Shown here: positions 1,099-62,171 of the stretch, in pieces
How positions within the stretch are numbered: position 1 is the first letter of the stretch
Layout of the letters: each line of letters starts with the position of its first letter
Assembly (NCBI GenBank): GCA_963923955.1
Contig: OZ000552.1
Coordinates: forward strand, 870,271-934,270
Length of the DNA stretch: 64,000 nt
Direction: 5' to 3'
Source of the DNA: Gammaproteobacteria bacterium
GTDB lineage: Bacteria > Pseudomonadota > Gammaproteobacteria > Eutrophobiales > Eutrophobiaceae
Made by a program: the position numbers and the translations under genes
Notes under the pieces: generated by a model
Databases searched by the model: none
What the model was told of the DNA's origin: nothing
Seen by the model: the letters and a program-made list of their open reading frames with translations, nothing else

Positions 1099-1678
1099 CC
1101 AATTCCGCCTTGCAGCTTTTGTACTGCTGGTTATAACTCGCTGCCCGCCGCTTTACCTTATCAGCCACGCCGATCAGCCACCTTTTCTGCTTCCAGGTGC
1201 CGCGTTTATAGCCGCCGCGGCCCTCATGGTAGGCAAGGTATTGTTCATAGGCATCCCACTTTGAAATGCCCAGTTGTCTCTGGGTCGCATGGGTGTACCA
1301 GCCGATAAAGTCTATGGCATCGCCGAAATCATCCCGGTCTGCCCCCCAGCGCCCGCCGGCCTTTTTATAATCTTCCCAGGCCGGGTCTTGCGCCTGCGCA
1401 TAGCCATAGGCGGAAGAGCGGCGCGGCAGGGGGATGACGCCGAGAAACCACTTGCGGGCGGGTCTGGCATTTCTGACAAAGCGTGATTCCTGGTGCATGA
1501 AGGCCATCATCACCCAGACCGGGGTGCCCCAGCGCTCATTCGCTTTCAGCGCATCCTTATACCAATCAATGTCGCCACGGAATATGGAACAAAGATTATT
1601 CACATTTTTCGGTTGATAATGACTACAGGCGCTTAAAAATAAGGCGAAGATTAGTATGGCTGGATATTTCAGGTTCAT
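1073..1678 (-). CDS. Lytic transglycosylase-like lipoprotein (SLT domain)
   Basis: Lipoprotein signal MNLKYPAILIFALFLSACS, SLT-type motif AFMHQESRF and YGYAQ; start trimmed to the internal Met that gives the signal peptide. Confidence 0.55.
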   Translation of the reverse strand: MNLKYPAILIFALFLSACSHYQPKNVNNLCSIFRGDIDWYKDALKANERWGTPVWVMMAFMHQESRFVRNARPARKWFLGVIPLPRRSSAYGYAQAQDPAWEDYKKAGGRWGADRDDFGDAIDFIGWYTHATQRQLGISKWDAYEQYLAYHEGRGGYKRGTWKQKRWLIGVADKVKRRAASYNQQYKSCKAELDDKADGWF

Positions 1679-1768
1679 AGGGCTTTGCTGCTCTTTAATA
1701 CGGTATTTTAGTTCTTTATAAAGAAACACTATAGTAATGGTTCTTTTGGATACGAATCAAGTCCGTTA

Positions 1769-3547
1769 ATGCGCCCAAGTCGAAGTATCAGTCATCGCAG
1801 CTTCTCTGGTAATTGGACAATACTGGCCAGCCTGGTTCCCTATTTTATGGAATTTCGCAGCCGCGTATTGCTTGCCATGTGCTGTCTTATATTGGCAAAG
1901 CTGGCCACTGTGGCCGTGCCCTTTGCGATGAAGAATATTGTCGATGCGCTGGACACCACCCAATCCACCGTGATTGCCGTGCCGATGGCCTTTTTGCTGT
2001 TCTACGGCCTGCTTCGATTTAGCTCGATCATCCTGGGGGAGATCCGCGACACCATCTTTGGCCGGGTGACGGAGCGTGCCATGCGCCGCATTGGGTTGAA
2101 AGTATTCAAACATCTGCACGCCCTGGAGCTGGAATTTCATCTCTCGCGCCGCACCGGCGGGTTGTCCCGAGACATCGAACGCGGCATAACGGGGATCAGT
2201 TTCATCATGCGTTTTATGTTGTTCAACATCCTGCCCACCCTGCTCGAAATCAGCCTGGTCACCGTTATCCTGCTGTTCAACTACGGGCCTGCCTTTGCCC
2301 TTGTTATCGTTGTTTCGGTAGCGCTGTATGTCGGCTTTTCCGTTGTCATGACCGAGAGGCGCACCCGGCTCGTGCGCGTGATGAATGAGATGGATGACAG
2401 ATCGAATACCCGCGCTGTCGATAGCCTGCTTAATTTTGAAACGGTGAAGTATTTTAATAATGAAGCCTATGAGGCGCATGAGTACGATGAGAATCTGGCC
2501 GACTGGGAAAAGGCGCGGCGTGATAATCGCCTGTCACTGGCGGCGTTAAATTCAGGCCAGTCGCTCATCGTTGCTGCTGCGATCACTCTCATCATGATCA
2601 TTGCGGCACGCCAGGTCGTTGCGGGTTCCATGACCCTGGGCGACCTGGTGCTGGTGAATGCCTATATGTTGCAGCTGTTCCTGCCACTGAACTTTCTCGG
2701 CTTCGTCTATCGGGAGATTAAACGTGCCTTGGCCGACGTCGAGCACATGTTCACGCTCCTGGAAAAACAGCCAAAGATAAGCGATGCAAAAGATGCGCCG
2801 GCGCTGATGATAGCAAGCGGTGCCATTCGCTTTGAGAATGTCGGTTTTTTCTATAAGGGCGATAGAAGAATATTAAACCAGGTCAGCTTCAGTGTGCCTG
2901 CCGGGCGGAAGGTGGCCATCGTCGGGCCGAGCGGGGCGGGCAAGTCCACGATCATGCGCCTGCTATTTCGTTTCTACGATATTGATGAAGGCAGCATTAA
3001 AATTGATGGCCAGGACATCCGCAGGGTTACGCAGCATAGCCTGCGCAGTGCCATAGGCGTTGTGCCGCAGGACACGGTGCTGTTTAACAACACCATTCAC
3101 TACAACATCGCCTACGGCAACCCGGCGGCGACTGAGGCAGACATTGACCATGCCATCCACATGGCGCACCTTGATACGTTCATCGAGCAGTTGCCTCGGG
3201 GGCTTAGCACAATGGTGGGAGAGCGCGGGCTGAAAGTCTCCGGCGGTGAAAAGCAACGTATTGCGATCGCGCGCATGCTGCTTAAAAAGCCATCGATCAT
3301 GATCTTTGATGAGGCGACATCTTCACTGGACTCAAGCGCCGAGCAGGCGATCCTGGCGGCATTAAGAGACATTGCAAGGCACACAACGACCCTGATGATC
3401 GCCCATCGGCTCTCTACCATTATCGAGGCCGATACCATCGTCGTGCTGCGCCACGGCCGTGTCGTCGAGCAGGGAGATCACAAGGCATTGTTGCGGCACA
3501 ACGGCGTCTATTCACGCATGTGGCAGCTACAACAACAGGAGCACTGA
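1769..3547 (+). CDS. ABC transporter, fused permease/ATP-binding protein (ATM1/HMT-type exporter)
   Basis: Six-TM N-terminal region, Walker A GPSGAGKST, ABC signature VSGGEKQRIAIAR, Walker B IMIFDEATSSLD. Confidence 0.85.
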   Translation: MRPSRSISHRSFSGNWTILASLVPYFMEFRSRVLLAMCCLILAKLATVAVPFAMKNIVDALDTTQSTVIAVPMAFLLFYGLLRFSSIILGEIRDTIFGRVTERAMRRIGLKVFKHLHALELEFHLSRRTGGLSRDIERGITGISFIMRFMLFNILPTLLEISLVTVILLFNYGPAFALVIVVSVALYVGFSVVMTERRTRLVRVMNEMDDRSNTRAVDSLLNFETVKYFNNEAYEAHEYDENLADWEKARRDNRLSLAALNSGQSLIVAAAITLIMIIAARQVVAGSMTLGDLVLVNAYMLQLFLPLNFLGFVYREIKRALADVEHMFTLLEKQPKISDAKDAPALMIASGAIRFENVGFFYKGDRRILNQVSFSVPAGRKVAIVGPSGAGKSTIMRLLFRFYDIDEGSIKIDGQDIRRVTQHSLRSAIGVVPQDTVLFNNTIHYNIAYGNPAATEADIDHAIHMAHLDTFIEQLPRGLSTMVGERGLKVSGGEKQRIAIARMLLKKPSIMIFDEATSSLDSSAEQAILAALRDIARHTTTLMIAHRLSTIIEADTIVVLRHGRVVEQGDHKALLRHNGVYSRMWQLQQQEH

Positions 3548-3624
3548 GGCGTTAAGGCAAGTCCCCAGACAGACTTGTGCAGGGTTTTACTCAGGTGCCT
3601 GTAACCGGAAAGAAATAGAAAGCC

Positions 3625-4059
3625 TCAAGCCGCATCACTGCCATCGGGCGGCTTAAACTGCGCTTGCAGGTAATCCGCAAAACTCCGGCATACATCCGTA
3701 TCGGTGAACAGGCCGGCCAGCTTGCCATGTCTTGTCACCAGTGCTGAACCGATATGCTGCTCGGCCATGGTGCGCAATACCTTATCCAGGCGCTCGTTGA
3801 GATCAACGATATAGGGCTCTCTGATGTACACATCGCGGACCTTTAATTCATCCCGCCCTGCAGCGCCCGCCTCAGTCCCCAGATACATTTTAATATCCTT
3901 ATAGGTGAGCACACCGACCAGTTTATCGGCTTCCGTTACCGGCAGATGATGAATGCTGTGTTCCTGCAGAAATTCCATCACCTCCAGCATGGAAGCATCG
4001 ATCTCGACGGAATACGGAAAGGGGGTCATCACTGACTTGATCGCCGGGATACGTTTCAT
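3625..4059 (-). CDS. CBS domain-containing protein
   Basis: 144 aa with a CBS pair pattern (HHLPVTEADKLVGVLTYKDI ... GSALVTRHGKLAGLFTDTDV). Confidence 0.7.
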   Translation of the reverse strand: MKRIPAIKSVMTPFPYSVEIDASMLEVMEFLQEHSIHHLPVTEADKLVGVLTYKDIKMYLGTEAGAAGRDELKVRDVYIREPYIVDLNERLDKVLRTMAEQHIGSALVTRHGKLAGLFTDTDVCRSFADYLQAQFKPPDGSDAA

Positions 4060-4068
4060 GGCATCGCC

Positions 4069-4872
4069 TTAGCGCAAGCCCAGTACATCCTGCATGTCAT
4101 ACAGGCCGCTCTGTTTTTGCATCAGCCATCGGGCCGCACGCAGCGCTCCGACAGCAAAGGGCCTGCGGCTGGAGGCCTTGTGGCTGATCTCGATGCGCTC
4201 ACCGGCGGCGGCAAAGAGCACGCTATGCTCGCCAATGATGTCGCCCGCCCGGATGGTTGCAAAGCCGATGGTGTTTTTATCTCGTACTCCGGTTATGCCC
4301 TCTCGGCCATAGACGGCGCACTCTTTCAACTCACGCCCCAGAGTATCGGCGATGATCTCGCCTAGACGGATTGCGGTGCCTGAAGGGGCATCCTGTTTCT
4401 GGTTATGGTGGGCCTCGATGATTTCTATGTCGGCTTCTGCGCCAATGATCCGCGTGGCCAGTTCAGCGAGCTTAAAACAGAGGTTGACGCCGATGCTCAT
4501 GTTCGGCGCACACACAATGGCGATATCGCGGCTGGCGGCCTTAAGCAGATTTTTTTGCGCCTCATCCAAGCCGGTCGTGCCGATGACCATGCGCTTGCCG
4601 GCGGCCCGGCAGCGTTCAACATTGGCGGCGGTTGCCTCTGCCAGCGTGAAATCGATCAGCACATCAAAATCATCAGCTACTGCGGCGATCTCCGATGCGA
4701 TGACCACGCCCCGTTTGCCCAGCCCGGCGGACTCATGGACATCAAGGCCCAACATGGAAGATTGCGGATGTTCTATTGCCGCGCCGATAATGATCCCGTC
4801 GGTATCGTAGCAGACTGCCAGGATGGTGCGGCCCATCCTGCCCGCCGCACCGCACACACCGATTCTTGTCAT
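4069..4872 (-). CDS. dapB: 4-hydroxy-tetrahydrodipicolinate reductase
   Basis: MTRIGVCGAAGRMGR N-terminal NAD(P)-binding motif, EIIEAHHNQKQDAPSGTA motif; start trimmed from the ORF track; sits downstream of dnaJ as in many bacteria. Confidence 0.85.
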   Translation of the reverse strand: MTRIGVCGAAGRMGRTILAVCYDTDGIIIGAAIEHPQSSMLGLDVHESAGLGKRGVVIASEIAAVADDFDVLIDFTLAEATAANVERCRAAGKRMVIGTTGLDEAQKNLLKAASRDIAIVCAPNMSIGVNLCFKLAELATRIIGAEADIEIIEAHHNQKQDAPSGTAIRLGEIIADTLGRELKECAVYGREGITGVRDKNTIGFATIRAGDIIGEHSVLFAAAGERIEISHKASSRRPFAVGALRAARWLMQKQSGLYDMQDVLGLR

Positions 4873-4968
4873 AGACCCCGTATCCCGTTGTTTGCCTTGC
4901 GCGAAGGCACCTGCCCGCTTCACAAGGGCGAATATATCAGTTTACAGGGGCGATTAGTATGCAGTAAT

Positions 4969-6096
4969 TTAATCGCTTATGCCTTCAAAGAACTTCTTCA
5001 CCCCATCCATCCACGATGAGGCTTGTGGGCTGTGACGCGTGCTGCCCGCCTGCATTGAGCTTTCAAACTCCTGCAATAATTGCCTTTGCCGCTTGTTCAG
5101 CTTGACCGGCGTCTCCACCATCACCCGACACATGAGATCGCCGGTGGCGGCTGAGCGCACCGTCCTCACGCCCTTGCTGCGCAGGCGGAACTGCCGGCCG
5201 CTTTGAGTCTCTGCCGGGATTTTGAGCTTTACCTTGCCATCCAAGGTGGGCACTTCCAGTTCGCCGCCGAGCGCTGCGGTGGCAAAGCTGATCGGGACAT
5301 CACAATAGAGATCAGCACCATCGCGCACAAAGATAGGATGCTCCTTCACCGCAATGTGTACATATAGATCACCAGACGGCCCCTTATTCTCGCCCGCCTC
5401 GCCCTCATTGCTCAGGCGGATGCGGTCGCCCGTATCCACCCCGGGCGGCACCTTCACCGAGATGGTCTTGCTGTCACGCACCCGCCCCTGACCGCGGCAG
5501 GTGGCGCAGGGGTCGCTGATAATCTTGCCCGCCCCCCGACACTGCGGGCAGGTCTGTTGCACGGAAAAAAAGCCCTGCTGCATGCGCACCTGACCAAGGC
5601 CGTTACAGGTCGAACAGGTCGCGGGGGAGGCGCCCTTTTTTGCGCCGCTGCCATGACAGGCGCCGCACTGCACCAGCTTAGGCACACGGATCTTAATCGT
5701 CGTCCCGGCGACTGCATCTTCCAGGTTCAGCTCCAGGTCATAGCGCAGATCCGCACCGCGATATACCCGTTCCCTGCCGCTGCGGCCGCCGCCGAATATA
5801 TCGCCGAAGACGCTGTCAAAGATGTCGCCAAAGCCCGCCGCACCGGCACCGCCCCCACCGCCCATGCCGACATCCACGCCGGCATGGCCGAATTGATCAT
5901 AGGCGGCGCGCTTTTGCTGATCCGAGAGCACATCATGCGCCTCCTTGGCCTCCTTGAATTTCTCCTCCGCCGCCGTGCTGTCCGGGTTGCGATCAGGATG
6001 ATACTTCATCGCCAGCCGGCGATAGGCTTTTTTTAATTCGGCATCGGTGGCATTTTTGGAAACACCAAGGATCTCGTAATAATCTCTCTTGCTCAT
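4969..6096 (-). CDS. dnaJ: Chaperone DnaJ
   Basis: J-domain [12 protein letters not shown]...KYHPDRN, G/F-rich region, four CxxCxGxG zinc-finger repeats. Confidence 0.95.
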
Positions 6097-11153: not shown

Positions 11154-11642
11154 TCATTGAAACGTCTTCCTTACAAACTCCAAATTTTTACATTCCCGGA
11201 GGATTTCCCAATTATTTTTTGTCTGTTGTATTTTTTTGATTGAAATAGATTGCTGTTTTAACTTTTCAATGTAGATGGTCGGCACAAAATAGAAATTGAT
11301 TTCCTTATCACCATTGTCTGTCAGCACCTCAACACCTACCACAACATCGGCTGTTTCCGTGCTTTGGGTGTAGGATTTCACGTCAGATTTATATTGCCGA
11401 TCTATTCCACCTCGCACACCGCCCTTAAATGAAATAGAGCCGGTTTTACTGATGGTTTTCACCTGGACTCTGATCGTATCGTGTTTGCTTCTCTCAACAA
11501 TCAGGTCGTAGGTGGAATGGGGCAGATCGACTTTGGAGGCATTAAACCCCCGTGCCAGTAATGCCGCCAGCAATCTGCTTTCATTGGCAAAGCCCTTGAC
11601 GGAGGCTAGTTTGCCTTTCTCCGTTTCATTTAAGCCCGTCAC
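11154..11642 (-). CDS. Small PD-(D/E)xK nuclease, restriction-endonuclease-like (Mrr/Hjc-like core), putative R subunit of a type II R-M pair
   Basis: Motif E-x2-LAALLARGF ... YDLIVE ... RVQVKT. A GTG start at 11642 overlaps the MTase TGA stop (GTGA); the track ORF starts at a TTG at 11729. AT-rich relative to the flanks. Confidence 0.45.
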   Translation of the reverse strand: MTGLNETEKGKLASVKGFANESRLLAALLARGFNASKVDLPHSTYDLIVERSKHDTIRVQVKTISKTGSISFKGGVRGGIDRQYKSDVKSYTQSTETADVVVGVEVLTDNGDKEINFYFVPTIYIEKLKQQSISIKKIQQTKNNWEILRECKNLEFVRKTFQ

Positions 11643-12898
11643 TTTTTCAAAACCAGAATGTGGTCGTCGTTTATGCGCTCTTTGCGCGGCACCTTGATAA
11701 AATGGTTGATGATTCCTGAAACAAAACAATATTCCACTTTATAGCCGAGCATCTGTGCCGCTTCTTGTAAATATCGCCAATTTTCAAACTGGATTCCGCG
11801 CACAAGATTATTACCAATCACTACAACATAACGGCTGCCCGGTTTCAGCACCCGATAAACCTCGCGCATGTTTTGAATCATATCCTTGATGTATTTTGTG
11901 GCGATAAAAGCCCGTCTGCGGTCTGTTTTATAAATCTGGCTTATAACATCGTCCGCAGTTTTCAAGCCCGTCAAATGAAGGCTTGCATAATCGCGCGCCT
12001 TGACAACCTCCGTGCCCACATGCATGCTTTTAAGCGCTTGCAGTGAGCCGGACGCCAGGCCAAGCCAGTAAATTTCCAACTGATGAGTGCGCGGATAATC
12101 CACGGCGTTTAAGTAGGGCGGGGAAGTCACAGCCAGGTCAATACTCCCATCGCCGATGCCCGCCAAATTGCGCGCATCAGCGTTGGCAGGGATAAGCACT
12201 TCCACCATGTTGCGGGACGCCAACTCTATCATGTTATCAACTTGCGTCTCGGCACGTTTCAGAAATAAACGGATGGCATCGCCTCGTCTTACTTGCTTGC
12301 CGAGTTTTTTGCGGATAACTGTCCGGGTACAATTATTATCCGCTTCACTCACCGAGCGAATCACTGATGAGAAAATAACCAGAAAAAAATCTTTGACTGC
12401 GCGGCTTGCATCCAGCATTTCAATCGTGTTTTTAAGAAAGCCCAACTCCTTTAGCATAAAGGGCTGAAACCAGTTATCGCGGTAGGGGAACTCTGGGGCG
12501 CCTTCCAGATCGGTGGGTTCCTGGTATTGCCCCGACTTGTGTCGGATCGTTGTATGCGCTTGGGTTACTTGCTGTGCTGGCAACGGGGTGGTCTTTACCT
12601 TAGCAATAAAACGGGAAAACGGGTCAACATCAACGCCAATGCTCTTGCGGCCGAGCAGGGATGCTTCAAGATTGGTGGTTGCGCTGCCCATGAATGGGTC
12701 AAGCACAAGCGCGCCGGGCTGTGAATAGCGCTCAATAATCCAGCGCGGCAATTCAGGAAAGAACTTGGCAGGGTATTTATGTATGCCATGTGTAAAGGCT
12801 CTTTGGTCCTTGCTGATAAATAAAAACCTCTTGCCGTTCCTGATAGGCAAGTCGGCCGGAATATTGCCTTCAATTCTGATTGCTTGTGCCGGATTCAA
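11639..12898 (-). CDS. DNA amino-methyltransferase (N6-adenine or N4-cytosine, PF01555-like) with permuted motif order
   Basis: N-terminal AdoMet module HGIHKYPAKF...VLDPFMGSATT (motifs X and I), catalytic motif IV TSPPY about 200 aa downstream, then a VLKPGSRYVVV-type motif. TTG start preceded by AAGGA; AT-rich. Confidence 0.8.
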   Translation of the reverse strand: MNPAQAIRIEGNIPADLPIRNGKRFLFISKDQRAFTHGIHKYPAKFFPELPRWIIERYSQPGALVLDPFMGSATTNLEASLLGRKSIGVDVDPFSRFIAKVKTTPLPAQQVTQAHTTIRHKSGQYQEPTDLEGAPEFPYRDNWFQPFMLKELGFLKNTIEMLDASRAVKDFFLVIFSSVIRSVSEADNNCTRTVIRKKLGKQVRRGDAIRLFLKRAETQVDNMIELASRNMVEVLIPANADARNLAGIGDGSIDLAVTSPPYLNAVDYPRTHQLEIYWLGLASGSLQALKSMHVGTEVVKARDYASLHLTGLKTADDVISQIYKTDRRRAFIATKYIKDMIQNMREVYRVLKPGSRYVVVIGNNLVRGIQFENWRYLQEAAQMLGYKVEYCFVSGIINHFIKVPRKERINDDHILVLKK

Positions 12899-20744: not shown

Positions 20745-21105
20745 GGGGGCGTGTCTGGCTTCGACGCGAGTATCAAAACCCAAGGGGCATGCCGAGGTGC
20801 AGACTACCTCGTTAATCCATCTGCAAACTCATAGTTGCCAACGACGACAACTACGCACTCGCCGCTTAAATCCCGGTAGGGTGCCGTCTGACCGCAGTGT
20901 GCTTGTACGCGTGGAGCCAGGCGTCGACTCATACAAGCTCGCGATGAAACCTGTCCGGGGTGGATTCGTTAAAGCGTAACGGAATCGTTGTTTGTCTTCC
21001 CTGCCGTTCGGGTAGCACACAATTAAATAAATTGAGCCGGCTAAGCATGTAGAACCGAAGGCAGAGAGCTTGCGGACGCGGGTTCAACTCCCGCCGCCTC
21101 CACCA
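20745..21105 (+). ncRNA. ssrA: Transfer-messenger RNA (tmRNA, ssrA), tag peptide ANDDNYALAA
   Basis: 5' GGGGGCGUGUCUGGCUUCGACG..., 3' ...GGACGCGGGUUCAACUCCCGCCGCCUCCACCA, G3:U acceptor pair, tag ORF GCCAACGACGACAACTACGCACTCGCCGCTTAA; immediately downstream of smpB. Confidence 0.92.
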
Positions 21106-25608: not shown

Positions 25609-26225
25609 CTAATGGCCTTCTGTGTCCTGCTCATCCTTGACCCACTTCCAGCCCGTGATCATGGGGCGGATTAGATTTTCCTTTTTCCAGATGAGGTAAT
25701 AAAAGACCGCCAGCAGATGCAACACCACCAGCACCAGGATACATTTCGACAAAAAGCCGTGCCACCAGGTCAGGCGCCATACTGTGCGCTCACTGACAAG
25801 GTGGGAGAGCGGGCCGGCACCGAAAAAGACATCCGACTCGACAAAAAGCCCCGAGAGCGCTTGGGCGGTCAGCAACACCAGGATCGCAATCACCGACAAG
25901 GCACCGAGCGGATTGTGTCCCCTAAGCCCGCTGGGGCGGCGCCGGCCCAGTGTGCGCAGGTAGGCAAGGAGCACGGAAGGGCGGGGCAGAAGGGCGCGGA
26001 AACGGATCGGGGCCGGCCCGACAAACCCCCAGACAAGCCGAATCGCCATAAGCGCAGGACGGTATAGCCGCAGTAAAAATGCCATTCAATGGTTGTGAAC
26101 GACATAAATTCACCCAGATACCAGCCCACTGACACGACCACTACCAGCACCCAGTGCCACAGACGTGTCAGCGGATCCCAGACCTTTTCTAAGCGACCAC
26201 TCTCCAATGGGCGACCCTTCTCCAA
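25609..26225 (-). pseudogene. Cytochrome b561 / Ni-Fe-hydrogenase-type b cytochrome, interrupted by a -1 frameshift near 26055
   Basis: N-terminal frame 26225..26055 gives KVWDPLTRLWHWVLV...HFYCGYTVL. C-terminal frame from 26055 gives ALMAIRLVWGFVGPAP...GHNPLGALSVIAIL...HLLAVFYYL. The two frames share nucleotide 26055; together about 205 aa. Confidence 0.5.
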
Positions 26226-26231
26226 CGGCGC

Positions 26232-26702
26232 CTACTTTTTCTGAACAAAATTATCATGACAGCCCTTGCAGGCATCGCCTACACCACGCAGATTAGCCCG
26301 CAGCGCATTCAGGCCCTTGCCGGCAGAGCCCGCCAGGGCATCAATCGCCGTCTGGTAGTTTTTGCCGTATTCAGCGATCTCCGGGTAAGTAGTCCATATC
26401 TCCGGCAGCGCGGCGGTCTTGCCGGGGTATTTATCATTCCCAGTGTTGGGCGCCCAGGCGCGGCCCATGTCCAACTCGGTCAAGGACTGCATTTGGCGCG
26501 CAAGGCCGGCCGCCATGTCGGCATCGTAGTCCATCTTGCCTTTCGCCATCGCCACCAGCGGCCCGAAAAAATAAGACCGCAACTCCATCTCGCCCTGACG
26601 CGCCTTGATCAGGTCCAGGTTCGGATCACCCCTGTCGGCAAGACCCGGTGTAGAGACACCAAGCAAGAACAATGCAACAAACAAACTAGTAATTTTTCGC
26701 AT
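26232..26702 (-). CDS. Cytochrome c' (class II c-type cytochrome)
   Basis: Signal peptide, C-terminal haem site CKGCHDNF, 156 aa; adjacent to the cytochrome b561 gene, as in many cycP loci. Confidence 0.8.
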   Translation of the reverse strand: MRKITSLFVALFLLGVSTPGLADRGDPNLDLIKARQGEMELRSYFFGPLVAMAKGKMDYDADMAAGLARQMQSLTELDMGRAWAPNTGNDKYPGKTAALPEIWTTYPEIAEYGKNYQTAIDALAGSAGKGLNALRANLRGVGDACKGCHDNFVQKK

Positions 26703-26784: not shown

Positions 26785-27687
26785 CTAGTTTTCAGGCATT
26801 GCCGCATACAACACTCGCAGGAAGGCCTCCGGGTTCAGGAAGCCGCCGCCCCATTTCTTATCCAAATCCGCATTGGGTTGCATGGCGATGATCTCATCCA
26901 GGGTCTTGCCCTGGTCAAGTAACTTTTGCATGCGATCACGCACCAGGATCAACATAGCGCGAAATTCTTCTAAATCCTGTTTCGTCGCCAGCGGGCCGTG
27001 TCCCGGCATGATCTTTGTCTCGTCATTGGCCATAGCAAGAATACGCCCTGCCGTCTCGATCATGCCATTTACATCACCGCCGCTGGAGGCATCGATAAAG
27101 GGGTATATGCCGTTAAAAAGAATATCGCCCGTATGGATCACATTCGCGGATGTGAAGAAGATCACGCTGTCGCCGTCCGTGTGCGCATGGCTGTGATGAA
27201 CGGCGCGGATCTCCTGCCCGTTCAGGCGGAAGGTGACAGTATCGTTAAAGGTGATCACCGGCAGGGCCGCCTTCGGTGCCGCCGGCACCTTGAGGTTAAA
27301 GGCTTCGATAAAGCCATCCTTGCTCATGCGCTCATAGACATTATCATGCGCCACGATAACAGCGCCCTCCTTGCCGAGATTTTCATTGCCACCGGTATGA
27401 TCAAAATGCCAATGCGTATTGATTACAAAGCGAATAGGTTTATCGGACAACTTTGCAATCGCCGCCTTTATCTTTTCCGTCAAGGGGGCGAATTGATCAT
27501 CAACGAGGAACACCCCGTCCGCACCGACCGAGACGCCGATATTCCCGCCCCGTCCCATCAACATATAAATACCATCCGCCACAGCAACTGTCTCGATACG
27601 AACATCCTGCATATCATCCTGTGCATTGACGCCGACAACAAAAGAAAACAATAATGCAATCAAGGTCAATTTCTTCAAATAGCTCAT
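26785..27687 (-). CDS. Periplasmic MBL-fold metallo-hydrolase (B3-beta-lactamase-like HxHxDH)
   Basis: Signal peptide, NTHWHFDHTGG zinc motif, downstream His-containing motifs (VAHDN, HHSHAH, PGHGP). Confidence 0.7.
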   Translation of the reverse strand: MSYLKKLTLIALLFSFVVGVNAQDDMQDVRIETVAVADGIYMLMGRGGNIGVSVGADGVFLVDDQFAPLTEKIKAAIAKLSDKPIRFVINTHWHFDHTGGNENLGKEGAVIVAHDNVYERMSKDGFIEAFNLKVPAAPKAALPVITFNDTVTFRLNGQEIRAVHHSHAHTDGDSVIFFTSANVIHTGDILFNGIYPFIDASSGGDVNGMIETAGRILAMANDETKIMPGHGPLATKQDLEEFRAMLILVRDRMQKLLDQGKTLDEIIAMQPNADLDKKWGGGFLNPEAFLRVLYAAMPEN

Positions 27688-27740
27688 CTCAATTATTCCT
27701 CCTAAAAAATTATTCGATTTTTAGTCGCGCTCTCTCCTGA

Positions 27741-28019
27741 TCAATGTTCGCAAGACCCTACAGGCGAGCAATGGTAGGTTGATAATTGTACCTCATCATA
27801 TATGCTTGCCGGCATTCCCTCAACAAATACGGCAAAGACTTTCAGCCGGATAACTTTGGTGTCTTGAGTGAGCTGCCGGGCGGTATCAAGGGCAGGTTCA
27901 TCCTCTCGCCGAGCGATGCGCCGGAAATACGGGACCAGGCTGCCCGATTTGACCGGCCAATCAGCCGGCCTCTGGTTAAACAAGGTGCGGTCTGCAAACG
28001 ATAAGGCCAGTCCAGGCAT
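27741..28019 (-). CDS. Hypothetical protein (no recognisable domain)
   Basis: 92 aa ORF 17 nt downstream of the nuclease-like gene; ATG at 28019 (the track uses TTG at 28022); weak RBS. Confidence 0.25.
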   Translation of the reverse strand: MPGLALSFADRTLFNQRPADWPVKSGSLVPYFRRIARREDEPALDTARQLTQDTKVIRLKVFAVFVEGMPASIYDEVQLSTYHCSPVGSCEH

Positions 28020-28039
28020 CAAGGCCTGTGCGAGGCTAT

Positions 28040-28447
28040 TCAGGGAGCGGGCAGTTTGCGAAAGGCCTTGAGGAATTGAGTCTTGCTTTTGAATGAATAA
28101 TGTTCTTTGTGGTCCAGCCTGCGTGTATTTTCACTAAAGGCGGGCATCACACAACCGAAAAACTCACTGCCTACTTCATTTTTCCGGACAAATACAAGCA
28201 CATAATGGATAGAGCTGTCTTTCCATTTGTTCTCTATACATTGAGTATCACTTGCCACCGTTTTAACCTGAATACGATAATACCTCTGGCCCTCGGCTAT
28301 GAGAATATCCGTCTTATGATGATCAAGCAGCGGCATATATACCTCCCAGCCTTCTTGCATAAGCCAGCTTGCAGCGAGTATTTCATAAGATATATTGTGT
28401 GATACTTCACGGGTGCCTGCTTTAATTTCTCTCATCATTTTCGGCAT
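28040..28447 (-). CDS. Solitary PD-(D/E)xK nuclease, paralogue of the R-M-associated nuclease at 11154-11642
   Basis: E-x2-LAASWLMQEGW ... TDILIAE ... RIQVKT aligns with YDLIVE...RVQVKT of the other gene. Start at MPK (28447) with an AGGAGA RBS 6 nt upstream; about 42% GC against about 60% in the flanks. Confidence 0.45.
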   Translation of the reverse strand: MPKMMREIKAGTREVSHNISYEILAASWLMQEGWEVYMPLLDHHKTDILIAEGQRYYRIQVKTVASDTQCIENKWKDSSIHYVLVFVRKNEVGSEFFGCVMPAFSENTRRLDHKEHYSFKSKTQFLKAFRKLPAP

Positions 28448-28527
28448 GATCGTCTCCTGTGTTGTAGTTGCTGTTTCCCGACACAGGCCCGATATAGGAA
28501 AGGATGTCGGGCATTTCATCATGCGCT

Positions 28528-28602
28528 AACACAGGAAAGCACACCCTACTTATTTCCGAGGTGTTGCATTCGGTAGGATACCCGACTGGGGGTTCCTGTG
28601 TT
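28528..28602. other. Nested inverted-repeat element upstream of the solitary nuclease gene
   Basis: Perfect 10 bp inverted repeat AACACAGGAA (28528-28537) and TTCCTGTGTT (28593-28602), enclosing an inner imperfect CCTAC...CCGAG / TCGG.TAGG dyad. Confidence 0.4.
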
Positions 28603-28721
28603 AAACGCAAGATACGGGTTTCTGATGTAAAGAAACCTGTATGTACGGCATCACACGCAAAAAATGAGAATGCAAGCGGTCGTGCCGGGAATTTTTCTTT
28701 TGCCTGATTTAATAAAACAGG

Positions 28722-29930
28722 CTATTTAATTGCTGAAAGTGCCTGCTCTAAATCAAGTATAAGATCTCCCGAATCTTCCAGCCCGATAGACAAGCGCACC
28801 AGGTCATCCGTAATGCCGATCGCGGCGCGTTGTTCGTCCGACAGCCGGTGGTGCGTGGTGGTGGCCGGGTGGGTGATGGTGCTTTTGCTATCGCCCAAAT
28901 TCGCCGTGATGGAAAACAGGCGGGTGTGGTCGATGAACTTCCAGGCCGCCGCCTTGCCGCCGCGCACGGTGAAGCTGATGATGCCGCCAAACCCAGATTG
29001 TTGGGATTTCGCCAATTCGTGTTGCGGGTGATCCGGTAGACCCGGGTAGTAGATTTTTTCCAGGGCCTCTTGTTCACGCAGCCATGCGGCGATGCGCCCG
29101 GCATTCTCACTGTGTGCGCGCATGCGCAGGCCGAGCGTCTCCAGGCCCTTCAAAAAGACCCAGGCGTTAAAAGGACTCATGGACGGGCCGGCGGTGCGCA
29201 GAAAGCCGAAGACATCCTCATTCAGCAATTCCTCGCTGCCCAAAACTGCACCGCCCACGCAGCGCCCTTGTCCGTCCAGATACTTAGTCGCCGAATGGAT
29301 AACCATGTCGGCGCCCAAACGAAAGGGCTGTTGCAGGGCGGGGGTGCAAAAACAATTATCCAAGATCAACAGGCAATCATGTTCGTGCGCCAAGTTTGCC
29401 AGATGAGGAATATCGGCAATTTCCGTGAGCGGATTGGAAGGCGTCTCAAGAAACAGTATGCGCGTCTGTGGGCGGATGGCATCCTGCCAGGCGGCATAGT
29501 CGCTTAGGGGCACGAAACTAGTACTAACGCTAAAGCGCGGCAGGATGTTGTGGAAGAAACCGACTGTGGTGCCGAAGACGCTGCGCGAGGAGACGATATG
29601 ATCGCCGCTTTTCAGCAGGCCGAAACAGGTGGCCGCTATGGCCGCCATGCCCGATGCCGTGGCGATGCAGCGCTCGGCACCTTCCATCGCTGCCAGCCGC
29701 TCTTCAAAGGCGCGCACGGTCGGGTTGGTAAAACGAGAGTAAATATTGCCCGGCTCATCCCCGGCAAAGCGGCGGGCGGCCTGCTCGGCGCTGGCAAAGA
29801 CAAAGCTGGAGCTTAAAAACAGCGGCTCGCTGTTTTCATTTTCCGCCGTCCGCGGCCACCTTGCGCGCACCGCCTTTGTGTTTTGGCCGACCCGGCTGTC
29901 ATCATCCGCGCGCATGTTTCTCTCCTTCAC
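28722..29930 (-). CDS. metZ: O-succinylhomoserine sulfhydrylase (Cys/Met-metabolism PLP enzyme)
   Basis: PLP-lysine context VIHSATKYLDGQG, family motifs SRFTNPT, ETPSNP, GLEDSGDLILDLEQAL; 402 aa (start may be M6). Confidence 0.85.
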   Translation of the reverse strand: MKERNMRADDDSRVGQNTKAVRARWPRTAENENSEPLFLSSSFVFASAEQAARRFAGDEPGNIYSRFTNPTVRAFEERLAAMEGAERCIATASGMAAIAATCFGLLKSGDHIVSSRSVFGTTVGFFHNILPRFSVSTSFVPLSDYAAWQDAIRPQTRILFLETPSNPLTEIADIPHLANLAHEHDCLLILDNCFCTPALQQPFRLGADMVIHSATKYLDGQGRCVGGAVLGSEELLNEDVFGFLRTAGPSMSPFNAWVFLKGLETLGLRMRAHSENAGRIAAWLREQEALEKIYYPGLPDHPQHELAKSQQSGFGGIISFTVRGGKAAAWKFIDHTRLFSITANLGDSKSTITHPATTTHHRLSDEQRAAIGITDDLVRLSIGLEDSGDLILDLEQALSAIK

Positions 29931-38384: not shown

Positions 38385-38877
38385 CCAAATAGCATCCTCA
38401 AATTCTGGTTTAAGACTAAGAAACCTGCTTGCATTGCGCTTTGTACAAGCCTCGTGAAGGTCTCGGCAAAAACCTTCTCGATGCCGCTAAAACATAAGGG
38501 AAACAAAGATAGGTCAAGGGATAGACACGCCGCGCCCACTTTGTCTGCCTGACAAACAAACCAAGCGAGCGCCGTTTATTTCATCTATGCCTGAGCCTGG
38601 CGGGTCTCACCCGTCGCAACGCTCCTCAGACATATAAAGTGCGGATTATAGTCTATCTAATATTTATATACCAATTAGTTCGCACCATCTCTGGCAAGAT
38701 TCTAGTTCCGGACGAAAAACCCGGCCTGTCGACCGGCCGATTCGCGGCGGCTGAAAACTTTGTTGGATTAACATTGCCAACGGGTTTATACTGGATAAGT
38801 CAAGGGGCTAAGGGTCGCTTTATGGGGGCGGGTTTGCGGCAATAACGCAAAGGCAATTTTATTTAGGATAAAAGCCG

Positions 38878-60980: not shown

Positions 60981-62171
60981 ATGCGGAAAAAACTGATCAA
61001 CGCAGCGGCGTTTGCCGCGCTACTGGCGGCCGCGGCGGGGGCGAGCGAGCCGCAGGTGCTCGCAGAATGGAACAGCCTGCCATATATTGTCAAGGATGCG
61101 GACACTAGGGCGGCATGGGAAGGCAGCGAGATCTTCGGCAAGGCCCTGCTGCAGGGAGTCAAGGTCGATAGCGCCGGCAATATCTATGTCTCAACCGCCC
61201 GCTGGGGCGGGGCTGCGATCCCTGCAACGCTGTCTAAACTGGTGCAGCATGGCGACACCTGGGCCTTGCAAGCCTGGCCCAATGAGGCGATGAACGACAT
61301 CGCGAATGCTACGGGGCTCAAGGCCGTGCTGGGTTTTGAGATCGACCGCAGCGATGTGATGTGGATCCTGGATCAGGGACATGTGGCGGGCGCGCCCTTT
61401 GCCGCCGGCGATGCCAAGCTGGTGCTCTGGGACATCAAGGCGAGCAAGGAAATCCAGCGCTATGTCTTCAGCGCGGCCGAGGCTGACCCCGAGTGTTCCT
61501 TTCTCAATGACCTTGCCGTTGATAATGACAGCGGCTTTGCCTACATCACCGACAGCGGCATCTTTTGCGACCCGCTGCATGGCGGGCTGATCGTCTATGA
61601 CCGCAACACCAAATCGGCACGGCGCATTCTTAATCAGCATCGCTTCACCAATGACGAGCCGAACTTCTTCTTCAACATCGACAACCGACCGGTGCTGAAA
61701 GATGGCGGCATGCGCACCGGTGCCGATGGTATTGCGTTGTCGGGTGACAAGGAAACGCTCTATTGGACAAACCTGACCGGCAACCATCTCTACAGCCTGC
61801 CGACCGAGCTCCTGCGCGACTTTAACAGCAGTGAAATCGTGCTCGAGAACGCGGTGGAGATCGCTGCGGTGCTGCCGTCGAACACGGACGGGATGACCGC
61901 AGATAACGCCGGCAACATCTACATGACCGCGCTGTCGCTGGATGGGATCATGAAATTTGATGAGGGCACCCGCCGCGTCAGCCGCTTTGTCCATCACCCG
62001 GACATGAACTGGCCGGATACGCTGGCCTGGGGGCCGGATGGCGCGATGTATGCTGTTTCCAATCACTTAAACGTCTGGGTTGACGGCGACATGGATTTCG
62101 ACAATCCCGAGATCCCGAATTTCCGCATCTGGAAGATACCGGGCGTTGGTCAGAGCTATACCCGCGAATAG
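60981..62171 (+). CDS. Secreted MRJP/yellow-family protein (six-bladed beta-propeller)
   Basis: Signal peptide; yellow/MRJP-like blocks: SFLNDLAVDNDSGFAYITDSG, GLIVYDRNT, TLYWTNLTGNHLYSLPTELL, GNIYMTALSLDGIMKFDEG; 396 aa. Confidence 0.65.
   Translation: MRKKLINAAAFAALLAAAAGASEPQVLAEWNSLPYIVKDADTRAAWEGSEIFGKALLQGVKVDSAGNIYVSTARWGGAAIPATLSKLVQHGDTWALQAWPNEAMNDIANATGLKAVLGFEIDRSDVMWILDQGHVAGAPFAAGDAKLVLWDIKASKEIQRYVFSAAEADPECSFLNDLAVDNDSGFAYITDSGIFCDPLHGGLIVYDRNTKSARRILNQHRFTNDEPNFFFNIDNRPVLKDGGMRTGADGIALSGDKETLYWTNLTGNHLYSLPTELLRDFNSSEIVLENAVEIAAVLPSNTDGMTADNAGNIYMTALSLDGIMKFDEGTRRVSRFVHHPDMNWPDTLAWGPDGAMYAVSNHLNVWVDGDMDFDNPEIPNFRIWKIPGVGQSYTRE

Follow-up and report, generated by a model that had tools for sequence, protein, structure and literature searches.

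The locus raises the question of whether a small nuclease-like gene that stands alone between housekeeping genes, ORF135, belongs to a split restriction-modification (R-M) system whose DNA methyltransferase (MTase) lies 16 kb away in the same window, i.e., the whole 64-kb stretch of DNA analyzed here, and what part is played by the inverted repeat immediately upstream of it. We favor a reading, at a probability of roughly 0.6, in which ORF135 is a mobile stand-alone nuclease gene under translational control by an antisense RNA and not part of an R-M system. The inverted repeat turns out to be more informative than the nuclease similarity. The gene and its immediate surroundings are as follows.

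28040-28447, minus strand: ORF135, a stand-alone PD-(D/E)xK (PDDEXK_5) nuclease-like gene of 135 aa.
27741-28022, minus strand: ORF of 93 aa with a TTG start, 55% GC and a GC3 of 0.55.
28612-28642, minus strand: 12-bp hairpin ∼80 nt past the metZ stop, at the upstream edge of the module.

ORF135 starts with an ATG at 28447, preceded after a gap of 5 nt by AGGAGA at 28453-28458; the 135-aa reading frame, its AGGAGA ribosome-binding site and the GC content of ∼42% given in a preliminary description of this DNA are thus confirmed (GC 0.431). Its GC3 is 0.44, compared to 0.69 for the flanking metZ and 0.63 for the flanking MBL gene, the closest relatives of which are 73 to 76% identical. The low-GC islet had been placed at 27700-28610. 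GC is indeed low at 28040-28720 and at 27600-27750, whereas 27750-28040 has 55% GC. The ORF downstream of ORF135, previously listed as a hypothetical ORF of 92 aa, is probably not a gene and lies outside the module; it has no match in Pfam, PHROG or PADLOC and no counterpart in 94 related loci. The hairpin at the opposite edge is probably the metZ terminator; its T-tract is weak, and a terminator scan gave no call on the minus strand. In a related genome (L096), icd-metZ and the MBL gene are syntenic with the window, and three other genes fill the metZ-MBL interval. No remnant of these three genes was found in the window, and the exact insertion boundaries are not definable from this comparison. 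Together, the GC3 contrast and the L096 interval point to horizontal acquisition of the islet as a module with one gene, set between housekeeping genes. A PDDEXK_5 gene next to an MBL gene was also considered as a conserved pair; the arrangement is seen in the window and at one homologous locus (L007), and it was rejected as a coincidence because the two MBL proteins are only 27% identical.

Several observations place the product of ORF135 in the PD-(D/E)xK nuclease fold class. First, its residues 23 to 71 match the Pfam family PF11645 (PDDEXK_5) with 28.4 bits (E 1.8e-6), above the gathering threshold of 26.1, with the match confined to the N-terminal half of the profile. Second, the predicted fold contains the alpha-beta-beta-beta-alpha-beta core of the superfamily, and its nearest structural relatives are I-Ssp6803I, a homing endonuclease, and the Hjc of archaea. 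Third, E22, D47, Q60 and K62 are among the invariant residues of its family and form a core of the type E..D..QxK. In this core, the invariant Q60 (Q-V-K) takes the position at which the canonical (D/E)xK motif has an acidic residue, and catalytic activity is therefore not assured. Searches of the PDB sequences with the protein and its profile gave no genuine match, the sole return being a spurious CheY, and no defence model in PADLOC-DB 2.0 matched at E ≤ 1. Nothing in NCBIfam scored above the curated cut-offs, and the only match was a sub-threshold one to the Hjc model NF040854 (12.8 bits, E 0.078, cut-off 70).

The ORF135 family comprises 17 clusters in 5.8e9 proteins and 131 representatives in 1.84e9, and its carriers are 93 genomes among 185,579 species. 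It moves among marine Gammaproteobacteria, Desulfobacterota, Verrucomicrobiota and others. Its members are ∼131 aa long with a mean column identity of 62%. The homologues occur sporadically and at synteny breaks, their genomic contexts differ between genera, and no relatives were found in the viral contigs of IMG/VR. The two nearest structures and the scattered occurrence at synteny breaks could suggest that ORF135 encodes a homing endonuclease that stands free or a repair enzyme resembling Holliday-junction resolvases. We consider this improbable. The gene is intergenic, with no intron or intein context and no Rfam intron family, and the absence from viral contigs also speaks against homing; the differing positions between genera leave no single homing site, and the strong conservation of the sequence is unlike that of decaying homing endonuclease genes. 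As for a resolvase, the score against the Hjc model is far from its cut-off, and so narrow a distribution would not be expected of an enzyme of core repair.

Small genes for defence and for toxins are known to be stored in integron cassettes. The ORF135 homologue is itself an integron cassette in ∼10 of 86 loci: attC sites flank the gene or lie in arrays at L025, L026, L028, L037, L054, L059, L065, L069, L070 and L075, with the attC 3′ of the ORF in the cassette-borne homologues, and at L037, L065 and L075 an integron integrase (TIGR02249, 404 bits) adjoins the gene in divergent orientation. At these last three loci, the homologue is oriented for expression from Pc and has no RNA in front of it. 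The protein is, therefore, tolerated when expressed, which weakens the notion of a toxin that needs a gate. The neighborhoods of the homologues revealed neither a conserved neighbor nor an enrichment of MTase genes; among the 135 nearest neighbors at ∼75 loci of the family, DNA MTase families are absent from the 25 commonest. A ParB/N6_N4 gene lies near the homologue at a single locus (L014). In our view, the product of ORF135 is most probably a DNA endonuclease, selfish or defensive in role, that requires no methylase.

The perfect 10-bp inverted repeat with an inner dyad that had been noted upstream of ORF135, with no reading attached to it, is present and extends further, with TAACACAGGAA and TTCCTGTGTTA (28527-28537 and 28593-28603) complementary at 11 of 11 positions and enclosing the dyad CCTAC/GTAGG. 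Its word recurs in a third copy, AACACAGGAG, at 28454-28463, overlapping the Shine-Dalgarno (SD) sequence, and in a fourth, CCUGUGU, at 28481-28487. Four copies of a 7-mer within 150 nt are far beyond chance, and the word was found nowhere else in the window. An Rfam scan of this region returned a full-length, sub-threshold match to sRNA-Xcc1, an RNA with three helices, that overlaps the repeat, and the elements of this region are as follows.

28497-28587, minus strand: sRNA-Xcc1-like structured RNA, matched by Rfam RF02221 and by our own model, R1.
28579-28587 with 28505-28513, minus strand: helix P1, AGUCGGGUA with UGCCCGACA.
28545-28577, minus strand: helix P2, with the internal loop AAUGCAACACC.
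∼28526-28539, minus strand: loop of helix P3, followed by a C/U-rich tail.
28593-28603, minus strand: a1, (U)AACACAGGAA, putative upstream copy of the target in the SD region; 5′ arm of the repeat on the RNA strand.
28528-28537, minus strand: a′, UUCCUGUGUU, putative anti-SD in the P3 loop; 3′ arm of the repeat on the RNA strand.
28454-28463, minus strand: a2, AACACAGGAG, putative target holding the Shine-Dalgarno sequence AGGAG; its predicted duplex with the P3 loop has −15.6 kcal/mol.
28477-28487, minus strand: b2 (UGUCGGG) and CCUGUGU, with which the 3′ strand of P1 and the SD region can pair instead in MFE folds.

The match to RF02221 covers positions 1 to 87 of the 87 in the model with 30.8 bits, below the gathering score of 53 bits and the 66 to 73 bits of true members; its E-value of 0.0013 to 0.0044 applies to the small region chosen and would be ∼0.2 over the whole 64 kb. 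The R1 model was built from five phage members, with the window and L007 left out, because a MAFFT alignment that included these two (five sequences) misaligned the 3′ half. R1 matches the window over its full length with 15.6 bits (E 4e-4), with P1, P2 and P3 formed, and matches L007 with 12.0 bits, the two hits agreeing in position and strand; across 96 kb of control loci, the background reached at most 10.6 bits. L007 has no match in Rfam and is seen only with R1 at full sensitivity. The P1 helix of the window (GUCGGGUA/UGCCCGAC) is almost the same as in the Providencia member, and the internal loop reads AAUGCAACACC in the window versus AAUACAAUACC in true members. Covariation among the latter supports the structure, with 94% paired and eight pairs having double changes. 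True members are borne on integrons, phages and plasmids; on phages and plasmids, 40 to 50 nt separate them from a downstream gene of the antirepressor type (Ant, KilA-N, BRO-N, Rha). In the window, the ATG of ORF135 follows the end of the match by 50 nt. The RNA was detected in two of the 86 loci of the ORF135 family, 11 of the others being negative at full sensitivity and the rest by filtered or motif search; it is, therefore, not a feature of the family. L082 was considered as a third RNA-bearing locus on account of its AAUGCAAUACC word and rejected with a model score of 5.7 bits. A promoter scan of the module gave nothing convincing, the best candidate agreeing at 9 of 12 positions with a start that would fall inside P2.

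Could the sRNA-Xcc1 match be due to chance, with the repeat a generic or nonfunctional element such as terminator debris or a REP-like palindrome? The score below the Rfam cut-off, the E-value over 64 kb and the lack of the element in most family members would be in line with this, and we nevertheless regard it as unlikely. Two independently built models give full-length matches that coincide in coordinates and strand, and L007 matches at the equivalent position. Moreover, the sole Rfam family matched is one that resides on integrons, phages and plasmids at the same short distance upstream of a gene as here. Finally, one of the four copies of the 7-mer lies over the SD, and a word that is not repeated elsewhere in the window does not form a REP family.

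An alternative of similarly low standing is that the repeat is an attC site and the islet a lone integron cassette (SALIN) at a secondary site, with the likeness to the RNA incidental. The cassette-borne members of the family fit this proposal, as do the repeat ends, ..TAAC and GTTAAAC, which agree with the R″/R′ core-site consensus, and a second GTTAAAC at 27975-27981, 624 bp away, so that the pair brackets the ORF. Isolated cassettes are also common in genomes (bioRxiv 10.1101/2022.09.11.507474). However, in our own constraint-folding scanner, which is crude and is not IntegronFinder, the sites at L025, L065, L070 and L075 pair 19 to 22 of the first and last 26 nt, whereas the window repeat pairs 11 and went undetected. 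The repeat lacks the unpaired central spacer and the L-box, it precedes the ORF while the attC of true cassettes in the family follows it, and the region 3′ of ORF135 folds poorly, without a clean hairpin. A tblastn search of the 64 kb revealed no ORF resembling IntI (best E 0.86), and an attC would not account for the two further copies of the word at the SD. Elsewhere in the 64 kb, the scanner gave no attC apart from a weak candidate at 61604-61739, where the GC content is high.

The favored reading, an antisense RNA in front of ORF135, instead assigns a role to the copies of the word. In the window, the P3 loop is predicted to pair with the SD region at −15.6 kcal/mol (p 0.008) and with a1 at −16.1 kcal/mol (p 0.001). 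Across the window and six true members, the loop-target complementarity covaries: the diagonal sum of the cognate P3-loop:TIR duplexes is the best of 5040 permutations, with a Fisher p of 1.5e-7 that is to be read with the fact that the loop boundaries were chosen after the sequences had been seen. In L007, the pairing between loop and TIR is not significant (p 0.83). Upstream copies of the target are also found in the Providencia, Aaphi23, S1249 and Escherichia coli members. Folding of the leader gives −51.3 kcal/mol for the a:a′ state versus −50.0 kcal/mol for the a′:SD state, and the computed probability that the SD is unpaired falls from 0.46 to 0.02 when a1 is left out. We suggest that the P3 loop UUCCUGUGUU pairs with the ribosome-binding region AACACAGGAG of ORF135 and thereby blocks translation, and that a1, AACACAGGAA, an identical copy of the target 5′ of the RNA, would compete for the loop as a decoy or anti-anti-SD. 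The P1 3′ strand may likewise have a second partner downstream. Because the P3 loop and the 3′ strand of P1 would each have a choice of partners, the leader could toggle between an SD-masked and an SD-open state, in a layout like that of a1/b1 - C4 RNA - a2/b2 in the immI operon of phage P1. In this reading, the RNA would be made and would repress translation, and the protein would be an active nuclease that needs gated expression. Complementarity between RNA and mRNA, as predicted here, is also a trait of type I toxin-antitoxin systems; the Pc-oriented copies without the RNA at L037, L065 and L075 count against strong toxicity.

The relationship between ORF135 and the nuclease of the distant R-M cassette concerns two further features.

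11154-11642, minus strand: R-M-linked PDDEXK_5 nuclease ORF (the R-M ORF), 162 aa from a GTG start; a remote homologue of ORF135 only.
11639-12898, minus strand: N6_N4 DNA MTase (Pfam PF01555, 72 bits), the partner of the R-M ORF and not of ORF135.

The similarity and the shared motifs on which the preliminary description relied are real but weak: BLASTP aligns 13 identities over 44 positions (E 0.007), the R-M ORF reaches PF11645 at exactly its cut-off (26.1 bits), both proteins match phrog_5018, and both contain E-x2-LAA, D-[IL]-[IL]-[IV] and R-[VI]-Q-V-K-T, the Q-x-K being a trait of the R-M ORF family as well. Profile-profile alignment of the two families with hhalign gives an E-value of 5.6e-5 and a probability of 66% over 62 columns. 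Members of the R-M ORF family have 160 to 170 aa and a C-terminal half unlike that of ORF135, and a homology search from the R-M ORF returned, among the matches listed, none of the ORF135 members found previously. Thus, pairwise similarity exists, and the two proteins are only remote homologues from separate families that meet only at the level of profiles, both nevertheless matching PF11645; ORF135 is not the paralogue, or second copy, of the R-M nuclease that it was taken to be. The lack of an MTase near ORF135 was borne out, with none within ∼9 kb on either side in the window. In both homologues of the R-M ORF that were examined (L104; L105-L108), the gene overlaps by 4 nt with an N6_N4 MTase of ∼420 aa, so that the nadK-recN cassette, for which a new reading had been contemplated, stays an ordinary M-R pair. 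The C-terminal halves of such nucleases usually set specificity. Accordingly, a distributed R-M system, in which ORF135 would be a second nuclease and the MTase at 11639-12898 would shield the host DNA, is very improbable despite the common Pfam and PHROG families and the common E..D..QxK core, given the separate families, a likeness limited to 62 core columns with differing C-terminal halves, the 86 homologous loci, single integron cassettes among them, that show no MTase enrichment among nearest neighbors, and an R-M ORF already placed in a canonical overlapping M-R operon.

These findings settle the annotation of ORF135, which should not be listed as a component of a split R-M system, and identify a small uncharacterized nuclease family that is strongly conserved, travels in integron cassettes and has no partner gene. 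They also suggest a concrete mechanism for sRNA-Xcc1, for which we found no agreed function in the literature: its P3 loop and the ribosome-binding region of the downstream gene covary, as in the C4 RNA of P1. If confirmed, hundreds of annotations as "virulence sRNA" would be reinterpreted as gates, encoded in cis, on the translation of antirepressor, toxin and nuclease genes. More tentatively, sRNA-Xcc1-type RNAs might constitute a general, programmable C4-like gate in front of mobile-element genes that must be silent, with the P3 loop rewritten for each ribosome-binding site and the decoy setting the switch; here, the gate might be coupled to an uncharacterized integron-cassette nuclease as a toxin-antitoxin-like or methylase-independent defence cassette. 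We regard this broader proposal as somewhat less likely than not. In the literature, we found no mention of an sRNA-Xcc1-type RNA paired with a stand-alone nuclease.

How does the module compare with known systems? ORF135 shares with the R-M-linked nuclease the Pfam and PHROG families and the helix-E, D and R-[VI]-Q-V-K-T motifs, and differs from it in that its family lacks the 420-aa N6_N4 MTase partner. Compared to I-Ssp6803I and Hjc, it has no sequence match to a PDB chain, is not intron-encoded and has Q in place of the acidic residue. The likeness to modification-dependent enzymes of the BisI family (NhoI, Eco15I) is at the level of the fold only, with 12 to 15% identity, and lends no support to modification dependence. 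Like SALINs and cassette-borne defence or toxin genes, the module is a small low-GC single-gene insert between housekeeping genes with relatives that are cassettes next to intI; unlike SALINs, the window copy has no recognizable attC.

sRNA-Xcc1 (RF02221) was first found in an integron cassette of Xanthomonas campestris, and many genome annotations since 2010 include it. The window RNA resembles it in having a P1 that closes P2 and P3, the internal loop and the C/U-rich tail, and in lying on the same strand as, and 40 to 50 nt upstream of, a mobile-element gene to whose ribosome-binding region the P3 loop is complementary. It differs in that its P3 loop is 10 nt longer, that no TTCAAT block lies directly 5′ of P1, and that the downstream gene encodes a PD-(D/E)xK nuclease in place of SymE, Ant, KilA-N, BRO-N, Rha or ORF6N. 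With regard to C4 RNA, Citron and Schuster reportedly described, in 1990, target-like a1/b1 copies upstream of it. Processing releases C4 RNA from the transcript that also carries its target, and the ribosome-binding site is masked by the loops of the RNA (PMC5320573, PMC8201110). In contrast to C4, the window RNA has one loop and the P1 strand, not two loops, with alternative partners, and the region 27600-28800 has no match to Rfam C4 RNA (RF01695) at E ≤ 10. As with C4 in the immI operon (c4-icd-ant) of phages P1 and P7, the RNA lies in tandem upstream of its putative target on the same strand, with a loop that would pair with the ribosome-binding region (PMC5320573); by this analogy, the window RNA would resemble C4 in mechanism and layout only.

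The description that fits the locus best is a stand-alone PD-(D/E)xK nuclease gene of the integron-cassette type, acquired horizontally, with a divergent sRNA-Xcc1/C4-like antisense RNA gate in front of it. As an observation, the preliminary description (a nuclease-like ORF, motifs shared with a distant restriction-modification (R-M) nuclease, and a perfect inverted repeat) was borne out. The features are:

28040-28447, minus strand: ORF135, 135 aa, start MPKMMREIK..., AGGAGA 5 nt ahead of the ATG
28454-28463: third copy of the repeat word, AACACAGGAG, including the Shine-Dalgarno (SD) sequence
28481-28487: fourth copy, CCUGUGU; like the third, beyond the two noticed before
28497-28587, minus strand: sRNA-Xcc1 match
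28527-28537 and 28593-28603: perfect inverted repeat TAACACAGGAA / TTCCTGTGTTA, enclosing CCTAC/GTAGG
28722-29930: flanking gene metZ, O-succinylhomoserine sulfhydrylase, GC3 0.69
26785-27687: flanking MBL-fold hydrolase gene, GC3 0.63

ORF135 has a GC of 0.431 and a GC3 of 0.44. The low-GC islet previously drawn at 27700-28610 holds for 28040-28720, but 27750-28040 has 55% GC; the 93-aa downstream hypothetical ORF in the latter stretch has neither a family match nor a counterpart in other loci, and we do not regard it as a gene. Within ~9 kb either side of ORF135, every ORF of 170 aa or longer matches a family with a metabolic, transport or other cellular role (SNF transporter, cNMP/rhodanese protein, M50 peptidase, DUF924, gloB, metZ, icd, aceK, apbE, ankyrin protein, ahcY and metK), and no DNA methyltransferase is among the ORFs; two smaller ORFs at 25609-26702 we take, by eye, to resemble cytochrome b561 and cytochrome c'. 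A tmRNA gene (20745-21105, plus strand, 220 bits) also lies in this range, and an SAH riboswitch (38560-38633, minus strand, 63 bits) lies upstream of the ahcY-metK pair. Among available relatives of the flanking genes, the closest (L096; metZ and MBL proteins ~75% identical) keeps the icd-metZ...MBL order, but three unrelated genes, which encode an HD-domain protein, a protein of 276 aa and DUF711, separate metZ from MBL (1599-5000, compared with 27688-28721 in the window). No traces of these three genes remain in the window. Given this unlike gene content, the stretch between metZ and MBL is a variable spot, and the ORF135 module with its low GC is an insert, the exact edges of which are not definable from the L096 comparison.

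The ORF135 family is a small one, with 17 clusters in 5.8 billion proteins by word-indexed search and 131 representatives, many of them fragments, in 1.84 billion by exhaustive profile search. It is carried by 93 genomes among 185,579 species, and IMG/VR viral contigs held no member. Carriers are for the most part marine Gammaproteobacteria (among them Neptunomonas, Marinobacterium, Endozoicomonas, Ferrimonas, Thiomicrorhabdus, Pseudidiomarina and Halieaceae); others belong to Desulfobacterota, Verrucomicrobiota and Planctomycetota. Nearly all members are 129-135 aa long, and identity to the window protein is 41-51%. When ORFs within 2.5 kb were clustered across the 86 non-redundant loci, no conserved neighbour was common to more than five, and clusters common to as many as five came from congeneric loci. 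The 135 nearest neighbours match 145 Pfam families, none in more than four loci and with no DNA methylase among the 25 commonest; their content is of the cassette-array type (ParE, GNAT, HTH, GFA, DUF1643). An integron integrase (TIGR02249 at 404 bits, cut-off 265) lies divergently just upstream of the homologue in L037 (Desulfosarcina widdelii), L065 and L075, and attC sites, either behind the stop codon or in arrays, are present in these three loci and in L025, L026, L028, L054, L059, L069 and L070; in L075, the homologue sits between canonical attC sites (GCCTAAC...GTTAGGC). Thus, a minority of genomes carry the family as a mobile cassette gene, and the rest as a solitary insert. Around the homologues, L025, L065, L070 and L075 have 4-6 attC sites each; two of these loci, L065 and L075, are complete integrons that include intI. 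The L037 cassette contains, besides the nuclease gene, a membrane-like ORF of 79 aa.

Because the family is cassette-borne, the window repeat was tested as an attC site, which would make ORF135 an isolated integron cassette (SALIN); such cassettes are common (bioRxiv 10.1101/2022.09.11.507474). TAAC / GTTAAAC forms the ends of the repeat, and GTTAAAC recurs 624 bp off, across ORF135. However, the repeat is no canonical attC: our constraint-folding scanner, which finds the arrays in integron-bearing loci (19-22 of the first and last 26 nt paired), misses this repeat, in which 11 contiguous pairs are followed by an asymmetric 6/15-nt loop. Moreover, attC lies 3' of the ORF in true cassettes of the family whereas the repeat lies 5', the region 3' of ORF135 folds poorly, and the window has no integrase. 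Since the scanner is not IntegronFinder, we keep the attC reading as a minor rival to the RNA gate. The GTTAAAC heptamers bracketing ORF135 (27975-27981 and 28599-28605) fit the integron core-site consensus GTTRRRY; judged by sequence, they could be chance or a remnant of integrase-mediated insertion.

ORF135 had also been read as a paralogue of the nuclease in the nadK-recN cassette (R-M ORF, 11154-11642, minus strand, paired with the MTase at 11639-12898). The shared motifs are real, and both ORFs match PF11645 and phrog_5018. By sequence comparison, however, the likeness is remote (BLASTP, 13/44 identities, E 0.007; profile-profile, probability 66%, E 5.6e-5, 62 N-terminal columns). The R-M ORF family is well populated (153 clusters, 57-79% identity, 160-170 aa), and the ORF135 family members found earlier were absent from the list of a homology search from the R-M ORF. 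In two loci examined (L104; L105-L108), a ~420-aa N6_N4 MTase precedes the R-M ORF homologue with a 4-nt overlap, and the window pair is arranged likewise. Given its own family and the overlapping MTase in homologues, the cassette stays an ordinary type II M-R pair, and re-reading it is unsupported. ORF135 is not a copy of its nuclease, the two families being separate with a profile-level likeness, and a distributed R-M arrangement finds no support. The window pair (11154-12898, minus strand) is a compact M-to-R operon, with an N6_N4 MTase, a 4-nt overlap and then a 162-aa PDDEXK_5 nuclease at 43-49% GC; the same pairing is found in unrelated genomes (L104-L108).

ORF135 clears the Pfam threshold for PDDEXK_5 (PF11645) with 28.4 bits, and neighbours of its predicted fold in structure comparison include many type II restriction enzymes. 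Residues E22, D47, Q60 and K62 are among the 25 positions that do not vary in the family alignment and form an Hjc-like E...D...(E)xK arrangement with the second acidic residue replaced by glutamine. No PDB chain matched ORF135 in a sequence search, no PADLOC defence model matched, and the Hjc NCBIfam model gave 12.8 bits (cut-off 70). The protein is a candidate DNA-cutting enzyme. Homologues in integrons lie in the Pc-transcribed orientation without a partner, so the protein is tolerated when expressed alone. These RNA-less copies argue against a non-specific poison and make a specific nuclease (for methylase-independent defence, or selfish or structure-specific) a likelier role than that of a classical toxin.

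Several observations bear on the RNA gate. First, the sole match below E 0.1 in an Rfam scan of 27600-28800 was sRNA-Xcc1 (RF02221), on ORF135's strand, full-length, at 30.8 bits (gathering score 53) and E 0.0044, or 0.0013 on 351 nt. This RNA was discovered as an ~88-nt RNA of a Xanthomonas integron cassette (PMC2996969) and lies upstream of symE in the commonest Xanthomonas cassette (bioRxiv 10.1101/2025.06.18.660453) and of an ORF6N gene in APSE phages (bioRxiv 10.1101/2020.03.17.996009), which fits the window context. Second, the P1 helix, which closes P2 and P3, is nearly identical in Providencia (GGUCGGGUA/UACCCGACC) and the window (AGUCGGGUA/UGCCCGACA); for the conserved internal loop AAUACAAUACC, the window has AAUGCAACACC. 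Third, R1, an independent covariance model of five phage or prophage members with a structure well supported by covariation (94% of cells paired; 8 pairs changed on both sides), searched with filters off, gave 15.6 bits (E 4e-4) on the window element at the Rfam coordinates and 12.0 bits (E 3e-3) at the equivalent position upstream of the L007 homologue. On 96 kb of eleven other family loci, R1 scores reached 10.6 bits at most, and no match lay upstream of the gene. Of the members examined, two (window and L007) thus have the RNA ahead of the gene, and the family does not share it in general. L082 has the loop word too but, at only 5.7 bits, was rejected as an RNA-bearing locus. In L007 (5985-6010), the start typical of the family, MPRR... 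with its ATG at 5989, is shifted by one base from the reading frame of the called ATG at 6001, which is a frameshift or assembly error in the metagenomic contig.

True sRNA-Xcc1 members were gathered by BLAST with the model consensus; L097-L099 were confirmed by Rfam (66-73 bits) and L100 by R1 (80 bits), and L101-L103 were taken on BLAST similarity and fit to the consensus structure.

True sRNA-Xcc1 members: downstream gene, P3 loop and target in its ribosome-binding/start region (TIR)
Providencia plasmid: Rha-family gene, 40 nt downstream; CUCAGAA; UUCUGAG
Phage Aaphi23: ant; CUGUUUG; CAAACAG
Phage S1249: ant; UUAUGUG; CACAUAA
Phage Pmp3: ant; AUUUUUGG; CCAAAAA
E. coli prophage: BRO-N gene; CUGGUAG; CUACCAG
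Pasteurella prophage: KilA-N gene; UGAACA; UGUUCA

In all six, the P3 loop, although varying in sequence, is complementary to 6-8 nt at or beside the downstream gene's SD or start codon, a feature on which the literature cited here for the family makes no statement. The window loop holds UUCCUGUGUU, which can pair with AACACAGGAG in the ORF135 SD region (-15.6 kcal/mol). In a 7x7 duplex-energy matrix of the window and the six members, the cognate loop-TIR assignment was the best of 5040 permutations, and 6/7 loops preferred their own TIR (combined loop-shuffle p 1.5e-7, with loop boundaries chosen after the sequences were inspected). The L007 pairing was not significant. The covarying complementarity, with Ant, KilA-N, BRO-N and Rha targets, maps to L097 2440-2628, L099 2420-2606 and L100-L103 ~1450-1610. 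A conserved block 30-100 nt upstream of the RNA in L097, L100, L101 and L103 runs from a target 7-mer copy through CGG...CCCGTCAG...GCGG and a run of ~7 T to ATGTCC; from its position behind the Q antiterminator gene in Aaphi23 and S1249, it may be a late-promoter or terminator element.

The inverted repeat is the P3 loop (a') paired with an upstream target copy, AACACAGGAA (a1), 6 nt ahead of P1. The Providencia, Aaphi23, S1249 and E. coli loci likewise have upstream copies, as exact 6-7-mers (combined p 0.025 with the window left out), and UGUCGGG, farther downstream, is a second partner for the P1 3' strand CCCGACA. In full-leader folding, a1:a' (-51.3 kcal/mol) and a':SD (-50.0 kcal/mol) are near-isoenergetic, with an SD unpaired probability of 0.46; in a predicted transcript from P1, which lacks a1, the SD is buried (0.02). 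We infer that the RNA is transcribed and represses ORF135: the P3 loop would pair with the SD region, and a1, by binding the same loop, would provide the alternative state in the leader. A promoter scan gave one promoter-like match, weak and badly placed. A 12-bp hairpin at 28612-28642 (ATACGGGTTTCT/AGAAACCTGTAT), ~80 nt past the metZ stop codon, is probably the metZ terminator; given its weak T-tract, read-through into the ORF135 leader is possible.

Beyond the locus itself, the main value lies in a mechanism, open to test, that the locus suggests for the sRNA-Xcc1 family. The order of target copies, RNA and target over the ribosome-binding site is that of the phage P1/P7 immI operon, in which Citron and Schuster reportedly described a1/b1 target copies in 1990. 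As the scan of 27600-28800 gave no Rfam C4 match, kinship to C4 is one of mechanism and not of membership. In the phage operon, C4 RNA and its target icd-ant share one transcript, from which C4 RNA is released by cleavage, and the loops of C4 RNA block the ribosome-binding site (PMC5320573, PMC8201110).
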